Notes under the pieces: model-generated
Databases searched by the model: none
What the model was told of the DNA's origin: nothing
Seen by the model: the letters and a program-made list of their open reading frames with translations, nothing else
Made by a program: the position numbers and the translations under genes
Shown: piece by piece, positions 1,925-26,181 of the stretch
Numbering within the stretch: the stretch's first letter is position 1
Layout of the letters: the number at the start of each line of letters is the position of its first letter
DNA from: Octopus vulgaris
Taxonomy: Eukaryota
Direction of reading: 5' to 3'
Assembly: GCA_951406725.2 (NCBI GenBank)
Contig: OX597825.1
Location: 5,270,001-5,334,000, forward strand
DNA: 64,000 bases

Positions 1925-2693
1925 ATTCTTCTTGTTTTCACTGCCAAACATCCATGCATATAGTGAAACCTTTTCAACCCAATTTCGATAGTTTTTTATA
2001 TACTTTTATTAGTTTTGTTTAGTTCATATATTAATTTATATTTTTATTCATTTTATCTTCTAAACATTTGTTATCATTTCTTATATTTCTCTTCCGAAAT
2101 ATCAAATATTAAAAAAAAAATCGTGTTATAATAATAAAATGCATTACAACCCAATTTCAATTCATCGATTTTTATAATTTCCATATTTTTGTTCCATTAA
2201 CTTTTTTCTATTCATTTTCCCCTTTCACCGTTATTATTTTTCTTTTTTCCGTCTTTTTCTTAATTTCATTTTCCAGCATCCGGCATCTTTAATTTTTTAT
2301 CATTAGCTGAAAATCAGTTTTCTCTCTCAAACTGTAACTTGTGATCAAAAAGTGTCTAAGAATATTAAAGAGATATTTTGAACTCTTCGTTAAAGTACAT
2401 TAATATCAAATAAATATATAATTGAATATAAAACAAATTAATATAAATTTAATTGCAAATGTTTGATTAATCTATTTCTATATTTGATGCATCATTACGC
2501 CCCTACACTCTCGCACAGTCAGACACGTGTTTGCCTTCTCTTGTGTCTCCAAATATCCTGTCCATAATTATTCCCGATTGCTCTATTAACAACATCATAA
2601 ATCTAATATTTCTTTGAATCAGCTGTATTGTTATATATATATATGTGTGTGTATGTGTGTGTGCTCAGGTGTGTGCGCGACTGTGTGTGATCA

Positions 2694-2851
2694 GGCGCAG
2701 ACGTGGTGAAAAGCTTGTTTTCCAACCACGTGGTTCTGCGTTCAGTTCCACTGCGTGGGTCCTTGGGCAAGTGTCTCCTACTATAAACCTCGAGCCAATA
2801 AAAGTCTTCTGAGTGGAATTAGTACATGGAAAGTGAAAGAAGGCCGTTCTA
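2694..2851 (+). mobile_element. SINE family B, 5' half
   Basis: CCAACCACGTGGTTC...CCACTGCGTGG..CCTTGGGCAAGTGTCT matches the complete copy at 56243-56645. Confidence 0.75.
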
Positions 2852-3006: not shown

Positions 3007-3183
3007 CGCTAGCCACTAAACCTTTTTCATTTTCTTTTCCTGTTTATTTCTGTGTTCCTTTCTGACGAAGAGCGTAGGCTCGAAAGGTAAAAGACTTTCT
3101 CACTTCCCGAGCGTTAAACTAATACATCTTTTTGGTGCTTACATACACGTCTTCGTCTTTTGTGTTTTTTTGTAAACTATCAC

Positions 3184-4831: not shown

Positions 4832-5335
4832 AATGCAAAATGGGACAAGAACGCAAAACATCCAGGCAGTTAGGTGATACAGGAAAGGGAAAACAAAACA
4901 TCCAGATAGACGATACAAAGAAAAAAAGGACGGGTCATTCGGAGATTTCTTTCCTCAGTCGAGTTCCAGGTTATCTTTGCAGTTTCGGCTGGTTATACTC
5001 GTGATTGCTCCAATCTGGCCAGCCCCAAGGAAAAACTAAGCTAATGTATACGAAAACAAGGACGAAAAAAAACGGAGAAGTTTACACAAATACAAATAAC
5101 AGGACATAACAACAGGTGTCTTTCGACTAAGGACGAATTAAATTAAACTGGGATACAAGTTTTCACAGGCACAGAGAAGAATATAGATGCTGCATGGACA
5201 GCGGCTGAACCAAGAATGAAAGATCAGGCTTGGCCGAACACTGGAAGAGAGAGAGGGGTAGAGGCAGAGGGACAGAAGAAGTAAGGAGGGGCGAGAAAAA
5301 ATGACATTTAGACAGTGAAGTGAAAAGAGGAGGGA
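4832..5335 (-). mobile_element. (TA)n-flanked non-coding element, diverged relative of 25158-25942
   Basis: Shares colinear blocks with 25158-25650 (GGACGGG.CATTCG, TTTCGGCTG, GATTGCTCC, TCTTTCGAC..GGACGAATT, CAGCGGCTG). Confidence 0.65.
4952..5024 (-). ncRNA. Scrambled-order hammerhead-like motif
   Basis: Minus strand: ggctgg..gcaa-TC-acgagt..ccagcc-GAAA-ctgc..actcga-CTGAGGA. Stems II ggctgg/ccagcc and I cgagt/actcg pair; stem III has one mismatch. Confidence 0.5.
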
Positions 5336-5389: not shown

Positions 5390-5427
5390 CTTTTCTGACG
5401 AAGAGGCATACCCGAAACGTCAAAAAG
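5390..5427 (+). ncRNA. Minimal type I hammerhead motif in an element (about 5340-5478 plus 6736-6775) interrupted by the mariner
   Basis: ctttt-CTGACGA-a-gaggcataccc-GAAAC-GTC-aaaaag. Stem II is imperfect. Confidence 0.6.
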
Positions 5428-5480: not shown

Positions 5481-6733
5481 CGAGGGGCGTTCAATAAGTA
5501 ATGCCCCTGACCCACTTCCCATAGCAGTAGAGCAACGAAACTTGGCACAGTTATTAGTCTTTTTCTACATAGCAACCACCCAGAGTTACGCATTTCTCCC
5601 ATTGTTTGATGCAGCTCTGGATACCGTTTTTATAGAAGACCCCAGCTTGGTCCTCCAACCTGAACGCGACTTCAGAAATCAAGGCTGCATCATCTGGGAA
5701 ACGCTTTCCTTTCAAAAACAACTTCATGACTGGGAAGAGGTGAAAATCAGAGGGTGCAAGGTCAGGAAAGTAGGGGGATGGGGGAGGAGTTCATAGCCAT
5801 ACGCCTGTGCTTCTGATCTGGCGATAAGCGAGTTGTGGACCGGAGCTTTGTCCTGCAGGAGGAGGAGGCCTTTGCTGATCTTGCCCCACCTCTTGATTTT
5901 GATAACTTCTCTTAATTTCCTCAAAAGTGAAGCATAATAGGCTCCTGCAATTGTGGTACCCTTTGCCAGGAAATCTGTCATCACTACTCCGTCCTGGTCC
6001 CAGAAGACTGTGAGCATGACCTTGCCAGCGGAGGGCTGCACCCTTGCCTTCTTTGGAGGGGGTGAGTCACGGTGCTTCCACTGCATTGACTGGGATTTGG
6101 TCTCTGGATCATTGTGATGGACCCAGGTTTCATCCTGTGTAATCAGTCTTTTGAAAAATTTTGACTCATCTTCTTGGCACATCTCTAAATTCACCCTCGA
6201 GCACTCGACGCGTTCTTGCTTCTGGAAAGGCGTAGGCAACCTGGGAATCCATCTGGCAGATACCTTTTGCATATGCAAATGGTCATGAATGATAGTTTCC
6301 ACAGACCCGGTACTAATCTTGACCTCATGGGCTATTTGGCGAATAGTTATGCGTCGATCTTCCAAAATGGCAGCCTCAACTTGACGAATGGGAGCTGTTT
6401 CCACAGAGTTCCGACCATGTTTGAATTCACGATGCCAGCGTTTTACAAGGTCATATGATGGGGCATCATCACCATAAGTTACTTTCATTCCATCAAAAGT
6501 CTCCCGTGGTGTGCGTCCTTTCAAATACAAAAACCGGATCACTGCTCGACACTCAACAGGCTCCATTTCACACTTGACTCGGTTCAAACACCTGTAAATC
6601 AGAAACCACAATTACTTCAGAGCTGTAATTTGCCACTTACTCTATAGAGATATAAACAATTGCACATGCAAAATTTCAGGTAGATCAAACAACTGCAAGT
6701 GGGTCAGAGGCATTACTTATTGAACGTCCCTCG
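5481..6733 (-). mobile_element. Mariner (DD34D) DNA transposon, near full length
   Basis: 37-bp TIRs CGAGGG(G/A)CGTTCAATAAGTAATGCC(C/T)CTGACCCACTT with 2 mismatches. TA target duplication at 5479-5480 and 6734-6735. Confidence 0.95.
5554..6566 (-). pseudogene. Mariner transposase, frameshifted
   Basis: MEPVECRAVIRFLYLKG...WIPRL...ITQDETW...LLQDKAPVH...HPP then a 1-bp frameshift to YFPDLAPSDFHLF...YVEKD*. 34 residues lie between the second and third D. The expected GRP linker after ETAP is missing. Confidence 0.92.
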
Positions 6734-8363: not shown

Positions 8364-8475
8364 TACATTTGACGGATATTTGTCCTCGTCTTGTTATACC
8401 CTCCAGCCTTCATCAGGTATCTTGGAGAAACTTCGAAGCTGGGTTCTCCTTCCTAAGGTATTTTTCGATGTTATA

Positions 8476-10259: not shown

Positions 10260-10904
10260 CCTGTGTCTACGAACTTCCTTTCGCTGGCGGCCTTATTCAA
10301 GTAAACATGTTTCTTCCTGCGCTCGTGAAAAAATTTTTTGCTCGTCTAGGCTTATAGGCCCTCTTTATTTGTTTTCCTGTCCTGTTTCTATTCCTTCTTG
10401 TACTGTATTTTTTGTAATTGTATTTTTATTTTGTATTTGTTTTTAATTGTATTGTTTTTACGTCCTGTTTTTGTCACATTTTTTTCTTGTTTTTACCCCT
10501 CTGCAAAGGAATTTTATTTAATTCTTTCGCAGGAAGGACTAGTTCGGCGAGACGTGTTCTGTCCTCACCTTCGAAACACGCTGGAGTTGAACTAGGGACA
10601 GCCGATGAAGGGGATTTTTCCTTGTGTAGTTGTCTTGTACTCTGCTTTTCGTTGTTAAAAAAATGGTCCCTTCCATGCTGTTTTTACGTTTTCGTTTCTC
10701 GTTGAGTTCTACGTCTATTTGTGGTGTCCTGTACACACGTATATATATTTATATATGCATGTATATATACATGTAGATGTAGGTACGTACATATATGTTT
10801 GTATGTATGCATATATTTTATCTGTTACACTATTGTATGACTGAGCACCTTCGCGTCGATTCGATTCGTTTGGTTTCGTTTCGTTTCTTCTTCTTCTCTA
10901 AGCT

Positions 10905-10905
<1 letters not shown>
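10260..10905 (+). mobile_element. (TA)n-flanked non-coding element carrying a scrambled hammerhead-like motif
   Basis: T-rich body bounded by microsatellites. Its 3' part is similar in architecture to the reverse complement of 49625-49782. Confidence 0.55.
10533..10608 (+). ncRNA. Scrambled-order hammerhead-like motif
   Basis: gaagg-a-ctagttcggc-gaga-cgtg-TT-ctgtcc-tca-ccttc-GAAA-cacg-ctgga-gttgaactag-ggacag-CCGATGA. Stems II gaagg/ccttc, III cgtg/cacg and I ctgtcc/ggacag are all perfect. Core U4 is C. Confidence 0.55.
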
Positions 10906-10984
<79 letters not shown>

Positions 10985-25109: not shown

Positions 25110-25159
<50 letters not shown>

Positions 25160-25245
25160 TAAACAGTAAAAATAATTACAGACATGGACAAGAACATGAA
25201 ACGCCACAGAGACGACACAAGAACCACAGGACGGGACATTCGAAG

Positions 25246-25334
25246 CCCTCAGTCATCAGTCAAGAACCAGATCATCTTAGCAATTTCGGCTGATTAATCT
25301 TGAGATTGCTCCGATATGGGCAGCCCGCCAAGGG
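25246..25334 (-). ncRNA. Scrambled-order hammerhead-like motif (intact core)
   Basis: Minus strand: cccttgg-cg-ggctg-cccatatcgg-agcaa-TC-tcaaga-ttaat-cagcc-GAAA-ttgct-aagatgatctggt-tcttga-CTGATGA-ctgaggg. Confidence 0.6.
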
Positions 25335-26030
25335 AAATCTAAGCCAAGTGCATTAGATCCCCTGGAAGAAAGCTTCGAATGTATACAACACGAGGACGGA
25401 AAACGAACGAAGTACACGAACAAAAATACAGAATACGTGACAACAATAAGAATACAAAAACGTAAAAACAATAACGGTAAAAATAAAGTATAAAAAATAA
25501 ACAACAAAACAAAACCAGGACGTAGGACAAGGGTCTTTCGACAGGACGAATTGAGTATGGGGCTGGCTTATGAAGTTGTGCCTAATGGCCACAGGGAGAC
25601 GAACAAATACGTGTTGCTTCAGCGGCTGCTGGAACGAAAAGAGCGCTCAACAGCGGCTAGCGGTCACGTGAGAACAAAAGACAAGAGAAAGGGACAGATG
25701 AAAAGAGAGAGAAGGTGGACGAGGGAGGAGAAGAAAGAGACAGATCGAGGGGGCTGGAGGTGAGAGAGATAGAGAAACGTAGAAGGGGGGGAAGACGGAT
25801 GGAGAGGGAAAGAAAGGAGGGGGAATAAGGGAGGAGAGAGAGAGAGAGAGAGAAAGAAAGATTAAGAGTCGTATCAATGCTTGAGAAAAAAATATATTTA
25901 TCGTATAAGGACAATTGTGGATACGTAGCCGCCGATTATATAGGTAAACAGTAAAAATAATTACAGACATGGACAAGAACATGAAACGCCACAGAGACGA
26001 CACAAGAACCACAGGACGGGACATTCGAAG

Positions 26031-26119
26031 CCCTCAGTCATCAGTCAAGAACCAGATCATCTTAGCAATTTCGGCTGATTAATCTTGAGATTGCTCCGAT
26101 ATGGGCAGCCCGCCAAGGG
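26031..26119 (-). ncRNA. Second identical copy of the scrambled-order hammerhead-like motif
   Basis: Identical to 25246-25334, offset by 785 bp. Confidence 0.6.
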
Positions 26120-26129
26120 AAATCTAAGC

Positions 26130-26181
<52 letters not shown>

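Follow-up and report, generated by a model that had tools for sequence, protein, structure and literature searches.

A predicted hammerhead ribozyme with a permuted and split core in a tandem-unit repeat of the Octopus vulgaris genome

The 64,000-nt stretch of the Octopus vulgaris genome analysed here (assembly GCA_951406725.2, contig OX597825.1, positions 5,270,001 to 5,334,000 of the forward strand; hereafter the window) raises the question whether an RNA that holds the pieces of a hammerhead ribozyme in scrambled order can be a ribozyme. A first-pass annotation of the window had described such an arrangement at positions 10533..10608 and had regarded it as an independent-sequence relative of a motif near position 25246. 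According to the present analysis of sequence and pairing, the motif is predicted, with a probability of roughly 0.7, to be a self-cleaving hammerhead with a non-circularly permuted order of its parts, in which two additional helices, IV and V, are inserted between the core nucleotides A9 and G10.1. The complete motif occupies positions 10496-10613 and is larger than the annotated stretch, in which the helices had been named correctly and helix IV and hairpin V had been overlooked.

The three helices and the 10-bp linker of the first-pass annotation were all recovered in the window copy. Helix II (10533-37/10568-72) is composed of five Watson-Crick pairs, helix III (10553-56/10577-80) of four pairs supplemented by U10557-A10576 and helix I (10559-64/10596-601) of six, and the linker helix L (10539-48/10586-95) contains ten pairs, including two that are G-U in the window, and ends with zero gap at the 5' strand of helix I, as had been described. 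The copy carries the triplet GTT and the core CCGATGA, and the cut is predicted, by analogy to hammerheads, between positions 10558 and 10559. The order of the conserved blocks, with the site at 10557-58, GAAA at 10573-76 and the CUGAnGA block at 10602-08, is that of type SGC hammerheads. The positions of all parts are compiled in Table 1.

Table 1. Parts of the predicted ribozyme and the repeats carrying it or its relatives, in window coordinates.
Feature	Position	Strand	Remarks
Helix IV, 5' strand CCCCT	10496..10500	+	Partner 10609-10613; mean pair probability 0.92
Hairpin V, 11 pairs and one mismatch	10501..10532	+	3' end abuts G10.1; pair probability 0.98
Helix II, 5' strand GAAGG (G10.1 = 10533)	10533..10537	+	Detached from core
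Linker helix L, 5' strand	10539..10548	+	Pair probability 0.97; equivalent of the type SGC I-II interaction helix
L-III joint, 5' side GAGA	10549..10552	+	With 10581-10585, non-standard kink-turn-like loop; kink putative
Helix III, 3' strand, with U16.1 (10557) and U17 (10558)	10553..10558	+	From pairing and family alignment
Helix I, 3' strand (10559-64), 3-nt linker and helix II, 3' strand (10568-72)	10559..10572	+	
Core GAAA (10573-76), then helix III, 5' strand	10573..10580	+	
L-III joint, 3' side CTGGA (10581-85), and linker helix, 3' strand (10586-95)	10581..10595	+	
Helix I, 5' strand (10596-601), and core CCGATGA (10602-08)	10596..10608	+	U4C at 10603
Helix IV, 3' strand AGGGG	10609..10613	+	Immediately after A9
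Family A repeat copy	10265..10918	+	Last 571 nt of the 768-nt unit (10265-10833) and first 87 nt of the next unit
Family B element	25158..26132	-	~780-nt unit and 190-nt partial tandem copy
Family C copy, like architecture	4902..5044	-	Core 4958-4952; decayed

A nested fold of the 131-nt stretch 10490-10620, computed without pseudoknots, contained helix IV, hairpin V, the linker helix and helix III at pair probabilities of 0.92-0.98 and left the strands of helices I and II unpaired. This stretch folded better than its shuffled versions (z -2.25), and the combination of helices IV and V of the window copy was reached by only 1 of 1000 shuffles. A descriptor of the order site-GAAA-core yielded six matches in 120 stretches (1.2 Mb) that had not been selected for the motif, compared with three in total in ten shuffles of the same 1.2 Mb. 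In the comparison with shuffled sequences proposed in the first-pass annotation, the 76-nt stretch alone did not exceed the shuffles (z -0.24; 74 of 200 equally good), and the descriptor did so (6 versus a mean of 0.3). No Rfam hammerhead model matched the motif region in a local scan, which returned one unrelated sub-threshold match, and the matches listed for the whole-window Rfam scan (150 of 496) included only microsatellite-driven microRNA matches.

The evidence that carries the prediction came from the comparison of eight repeat families of the O. vulgaris genome, designated A, A2, E, B, C, F, G and N, of which family F is a single copy; a two-copy B2 group was left unscored. The window contains the family A motif described above, two family B copies and one of family C. 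The family B element harbours a complete motif at ~25241-25379 (core 25259-25253, minus strand) and a second copy (core 26044-26038, minus strand) that starts inside hairpin V, and the window copy of family C is devoid of the upstream strands of helices IV and V that are present in the consensus of its family. Almost no primary similarity between the family A motif and that near 25246 had been claimed, and blastn indeed detected none. Across the eight consensus sequences helix I was paired at 40 of 40 and helix III at 32 of 32 positions, with two to five pair types per position, although these families form about three or four related groups, and the counts overstate their independence. Helix II with its upstream strand was paired at 35 of 35 positions in seven families (family G being left out), the offset used being the best found in each family, whereas registers with a downstream strand yielded 11, 18 and 18 of 32 pairs and slid controls 8-18 of 35; the upstream assignment made in the first-pass annotation was thereby upheld. 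Moreover, in all eight families the 3' end of hairpin V lies 0-2 nt upstream of the helix II 5' position, and helix IV, whose partner is the strand immediately preceding V, begins 0-3 nt past A9; each family also possesses a linker helix of 4-10 bp (10 bp in the window copy). Helices IV and V together were reached by 1, 11, 17, 0, 1, 4, 14 and 118 of 1000 shuffles in families A, A2, E, B, C, F, G and N, respectively. The pair tables clearly indicate that the RNA structure is real and selected, and that the fold is common to the 25246 family in spite of its unrelated sequence, as had been maintained before.

The family A motif is part of a tandem-unit repeat of 768 nt with a GC content of 37%, in which the longest sense-strand open reading frame (ORF) starting with ATG specifies 77 amino acids. 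The window copy is 5'-truncated, flanked by (CA/TA)n and (TA)n, and contains no coding ORF. A search of the genome with a 481-nt query resulted in 2516 candidates, 40 of which were scored and showed ~95-97% identity, and a 24-mer from the motif had 466 exact matches, compared with none for the control. Of the best 30 family A copies, 17 extend 87 nt into the next unit (10834-10918 in the window copy), as far as an internal TA-rich word, and 10 stop at the unit end; at 24 of the 30 3' ends (TA)n follows. Some copies are partial tandems or inverted. Both kinds of 3' end fall at TA-like words, which suggests that a multimeric or circular template is primed through pairing to the (TA)n target.

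The family alignment also permitted a judgement on the two deviations of the window copy. In 33 distinct family A copies, mostly chosen by similarity, position 10603 is T in 32, so that the core CTGATGA is restored in 32 copies and the U4C change is private to the window. The GUU triplet had been considered a sign of decay that the consensus might replace by GUC or GUA; this view had to be abandoned, since GUU is the family norm (32 of 33 copies), recurs in 23 of the 25 parseable copies among 40 chosen by position, and was also recognized by eye in the nematode element Naiad_Hpol. U16.1 is kept in all 33 copies and U17 in 32, and position 10547 is A in 28 of 33. Regarding the proposal that the copy is dead or a variant, the lesion is confirmed as private, although the copy may be weakened rather than surely dead: U4C is described as lowering in vitro activity considerably while still permitting viroid infectivity (Perreault 2011). 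As a single copy bearing U4C, the window copy is probably weak or silent.

In the proposed mechanism the RNA would fold first into a nested rod made up of helices IV, V, L and III, with two patches remaining single-stranded; helices I and II would then form between these patches and close the catalytic core. A9 would enter helix IV and G10.1 would exit hairpin V, with IV stacked on V. By the geometry of the hammerhead core, helix II would stack on the A9.G12 pair, and the crossing strands would set A9 beside G10.1, such that a four-way junction stands in for the covalent A9-G10.1 link. Helices IV and V might in this way account for the function of a core that is divided at A9-G10.1. A cut after GUU in multimeric transcripts would free unit-length RNA, linear or circularised, which the reverse transcriptase (RT) and endonuclease of a Penelope-like helper would copy into (TA)n tracts. 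Back-splicing as a means of joining A9 to G10.1 was considered and rejected: family A has CAG before G10.1 but no GT after A9, and family B is devoid of the AG.

The first-pass annotation had pointed out that a linker helix abutting helix I requires either a sharp kink or pairing in trans, and this problem proved to be real. By eye, the joint between L and III matches the standard kink-turn pattern, in which tandem G.A pairs follow a 3-nt bulge, in families B, C, F and N, and is non-standard in families A2 and G as well as in family A. In family E it is a 5x5 loop, which we take to resemble loop-E. A G at position 3n is described as favouring ion-induced folding of kink-turns (McPhee et al. 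2014, PMC4382518); families B, C and F have 3n=G, whereas the G-C pair of family A does not favour such folding (PMC4382518, PMC5061560). In the alternative, two tandem units would pair in trans to form helices I and II as a double hammerhead, instead of the rod folding back on itself at the L-III kink. A dimer has been proposed for other Penelope hammerheads (Cervera 2014), and the cleavage of single-unit constructs (Eckert 2023, PMC10085705), a paper that does not discuss dimers in the passages found, argues against it. In the published element of Eulimnadia the joint is a single bulged base within about 15 stacked pairs, and since a rod of this length and straightness seems unable to fold back over linkers of 1-2 nt, we lean, by a narrow preference, towards the tandem-unit dimer.

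A possible trace of cutting was sought in the ends of genomic copies. For families A and B, 40 copies each were chosen by position, and the 5' ends lying between the predicted cut and the search word were counted. Ten of 40 family A copies start in the span from the cut onward (+5 to +17; rate ratio 4.5 relative to the 70 nt upstream, p 0.003), as do 8 of 40 family B copies (0, 0, +3 to +27; ratio 4.8, p 0.014), two of which begin exactly at the predicted cut. In one further family A copy, the junction with its own inverted sequence lies close to the cut. This excess of 5' ends is suggestive of cleavage only. Among the datasets listed as containing the sequence, none is recorded as RNA. Contigs assembled from runs that are presumed to be RNA include both family A and family B but yield neither molecule ends nor joints; their breaks near the cut coincide with branch points of subfamilies, and loose ends in run X2 resemble a template-switch adaptor used for complementary DNA.

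In addition to the limits on the pair counts given above, several observations weigh against the prediction. The partial family B copies of tandem loci show no step at the cut (10 starts 3' of it versus 13 in an equal 5' span), and drop-off of RT near the 3' end or stalling at the structure could produce the observed excess of 5' ends. Upstream helix II alone was reached by 5-160 of 1000 shuffles per family, family G offers no good partner for an upstream helix II, 632 of 1000 shuffles being equally good, and helices IV and V of family N are not significant at 118 of 1000. The joint of family A (GAGA/CUGGA) contains tandem GA, but its non-bulged strand is longer by two bases and the pair that comes next is G-C. 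The published permutation scheme is described as assuming that CUGAnGA is never separated by more than 1-2 nt from helix II and cannot be interrupted (Eckert 2023, PMC10085705), and neither a hammerhead with a broken or helix-interrupted A9-G10.1 link nor a permuted hammerhead in Naiad elements was found in the literature searched, most subscription papers being outside its coverage. For the relation to Naiads discussed below, family A shows no sequence similarity to the Naiad 3' end, and the published Naiad 3' ends were parsed by eye and not computed.

The foremost of the competing explanations, although improbable, is that the motif is a non-catalytic RNA derived from a ribozyme and kept for recognition by the RT/endonuclease or by a kink-turn-binding protein. 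It draws on the fact that the function of a split A9-G10.1 link is only predicted, on the weak helix II of family G and on bivalve Naiads, which have spread with no visible CUGAnGA in the last ~300 nt of their displayed sequences. Yet eight families and several phyla retain all letters of the catalytic core together with a cleavable UH while the helix sequences change, some copies begin exactly at the predicted cut, and nematode Naiads retain, in the parts displayed, intact type CSG forms of the same ring of strands. Slightly less probable still is an ordinary type SGC hammerhead in which the GGGG following CUGAUGA-A pairs with CUUC as helix II, the core being intact apart from one extra A and the upstream strand and helices IV and V constituting an off-state. 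No new architecture is required by this explanation, four pairs (G-C, G-U, G-U, G-C) can be formed in families A and E, and an extra A after the core is common among canonical-order motifs of the octopus genome; however, the downstream registers are poorly paired over the eight families, with at most one or two pairs in C and G, the same GGGG forms Watson-Crick helix IV at a probability of 0.92, and coral, acanthocephalan and crustacean Naiads display six upstream Watson-Crick pairs by eye. That the helices are chance pairings in a repeat holding core-like words, as the unremarkable folding of the 76 nt and the missing Rfam hammerhead match might imply, is effectively refuted by the pair tables, with the same order, spacing and compensated pairs in eight families; the shuffles of the descriptor and of helices IV and V also speak against it.

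The predicted split-core hammerhead was compared with the ribozymes described previously. Family A carries the hammerhead signature CUGAnGA, GAAA and UH, and helices I-III covary across the families, family G being left out for helix II. Type SGC is a published non-circular permutation, and type SGC and CSG RNAs are reported to cleave in vitro (HRIMA-1; Eckert et al. 2023, PMC10085705). The octopus motif resembles type SGC, as described there, in the order site-GAAA-CUGAnGA, in the 3-nt link between the 3' strands of helices I and II, in an extra helix tying the far ends of these two helices and in the geometric worry over joining the tying helix to helix III. It differs in that helix IV and hairpin V interrupt block C at A9-G10.1, the 5' strand of helix II being located upstream and A9 running into helix IV; in that the linker helix is continued by both of its strands into helix III, via a kink-like joint; and in its carrier, an animal genomic retroelement, whereas the first motif of Eckert et al. 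came from metatranscriptomes. A term search of the supplement of that paper for 'octopus' gave no hit.

Non-long terminal repeat (non-LTR) retrozymes (Cervera and de la Pena 2020, PMC7229834; Li et al. 2026, bioRxiv 10.64898/2026.07.22.740005) are similar, as far as described in the parts consulted, in being non-coding tandem units of low GC content with one hammerhead each and of Penelope-like derivation. The units of families A (768 nt) and B (~780 nt) are likewise non-coding, each with one predicted hammerhead, and occur from partial to multiple tandems. However, non-LTR retrozymes have type I hammerheads in units of 150-450 bp, and family A shows the order S-G-C instead of C-G-S in a longer unit; due to the non-circular permutation in a 768-nt unit, type I descriptors would miss the ribozyme. 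A Penelope-like host is shared with the Penelope hammerheads, for which a dimer of two tandem copies has been proposed that rescues an unstable helix III in the canonical order (Cervera 2014), whereas family A has a stable helix III, and pairing in trans would concern helices I and II instead.

A link to a defined group of retroelements was provided by family N. Naiads are Penelope-like elements that have been reported without canonical hammerheads, a lack from which it was concluded that Penelope-like elements can dispense with the ribozymes (Craig et al. 2021, PMC8557442); the same paper marks an 'HHR_core' (10 occurrences) and an 'HHR_half_core' (8, including one from octopus) in the parts displayed. 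The 3' end of the published Naiad_Obim consensus parses by eye into the split-core architecture, and a 20-mer from it had 879 matches in the O. vulgaris genome at no more than one mismatch, which constitute family N. Walking upstream from these copies led to an RT (RVT_1, E 1.3e-5, below the Pfam curated cut-off), and peptides encoded there match by eye the displayed Naiad_Obim/Ovul protein. The family N motif is located on the sense strand downstream of a Naiad-type RT in 12 of the best 30 RT loci (1.5-kb flank) and in none of 25 loci from a GIY-YIG search, which returned mostly elements with a C-terminal endonuclease. Accordingly, family N is the 3' untranslated region of a Naiad Penelope-like element.

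Forty-four published Naiad 3' ends, supplemented by matches to core words, were viewed in the parts displayed. The split form with helices IV and V was recognized in seven Naiads, namely three near-identical ones of Acropora and those of Pomphorhynchus laevis, Eulimnadia texana and two from Octopus. In the Naiad-2 of Morbakka the upstream helix II was seen, with helices IV and V outside the displayed part. Six nematode Naiads present intact type CSG hammerheads, one of which (Naiad_Hpol) is the copy with GUU mentioned above. The core could not be parsed in six Naiads (Ptep, Smim, 1_Dst, 2_Dst, 4_Dst and Esco), and the remaining 3' ends gave no parseable motif in the part displayed, most of those from bivalves and hemichordates having no CUGAnGA there. 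The split-core motif is probably the 'missing' hammerhead of Naiads. Family A shares with Naiads, as these are described, the (TA)n targets, the 5' truncation, the partial tandems and the inversions, and differs in lacking an ORF for an N-terminal GIY-YIG domain and a C-terminal RT, so that it would be non-autonomous at best. Since the Naiad 3' end provides no sequence match, a Naiad origin of family A rests on architecture and insertion habits, by which family A is likely a non-autonomous Naiad-type Penelope-like retroelement.

Taken further, with prospects only a little better than even, Naiads would carry non-circularly permuted hammerheads that were overlooked because of this permutation. 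Those of nematodes would be intact type CSG, and those of coral, acanthocephalan, crustacean and cephalopod elements and their non-autonomous offspring would be of the split-core form with a four-way junction (II, the A9.G12 stack, IV and V), active and cutting as a head-to-tail dimer of two tandem units. If so, the puzzle of Naiads without canonical hammerheads (Craig et al. 2021, PMC8557442) would be solved, non-circular permutations of the hammerhead would reside in animal genomes at high copy number, and type CSG, so far known from two sequences, would gain several further examples. The premise of the six-permutation scheme, an uninterruptible CUGAnGA block, would be broken, and a core that tolerates a helical junction at A9-G10.1 would possibly offer a new insertion site for engineered switches.

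Several observations made alongside concern other Penelope-like elements. The displayed 3' end of Naiad-1_Movir contains no CUGAnGA; words in it resemble what we assume to be the core of the twister ribozyme, and Naiads may swap ribozyme classes. The displayed 3' ends of bivalve and hemichordate Naiads share a conserved, GC-rich motif of ~70 nt devoid of a hammerhead core, at the position of the ribozyme in other Naiads, which is a candidate for another structured or self-cleaving RNA, and Naiads from corals, bivalves and hemichordates have a second conserved motif towards the other end, in their 5' region. A young Penelope-like element of the octopus genome with an intact frame of 781 amino acids for RT with a GIY-YIG domain at the C terminus, many copies of which are open (e.g. 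L292, L297), has a canonical-order hammerhead-like motif near its 3' end and no split-core motif; it is a candidate helper for the non-autonomous families.

Minimal hammerhead-like motifs in canonical order (CUGAnGA, short helix II, GAAA) are present in the window at 3062-3090 (+), 5395-5420 (+), 40758-40735 (-) and 36689-36660 (-) in ordinary Penelope-type repeats, and 38 canonical-order hammerhead-like words were counted in the 1.2-Mb sample. Locus L071:2300-4600 contains seven identical canonical-order motifs at a spacing of ~355-360 nt in both orientations and is a probable classical non-LTR retrozyme array. At 8380-8460 (-) the window holds a decayed copy, with deletions, of a canonical-order hammerhead repeat that is very common; the helix II of this repeat is identical in sequence to the one shared by families B, C and F, which may point to a common origin. 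Outside these elements, starts of a repeated element resembling the head of a tRNA-derived short interspersed element were noted at 852-900 and 2690-2700 (+), ARAGORN detecting no tRNA in the window, and an open frame of 295 amino acids at 5724-6611 (-) encodes mariner/Mos1 transposase domains (Transposase_1, E 3e-23; HTH_48).
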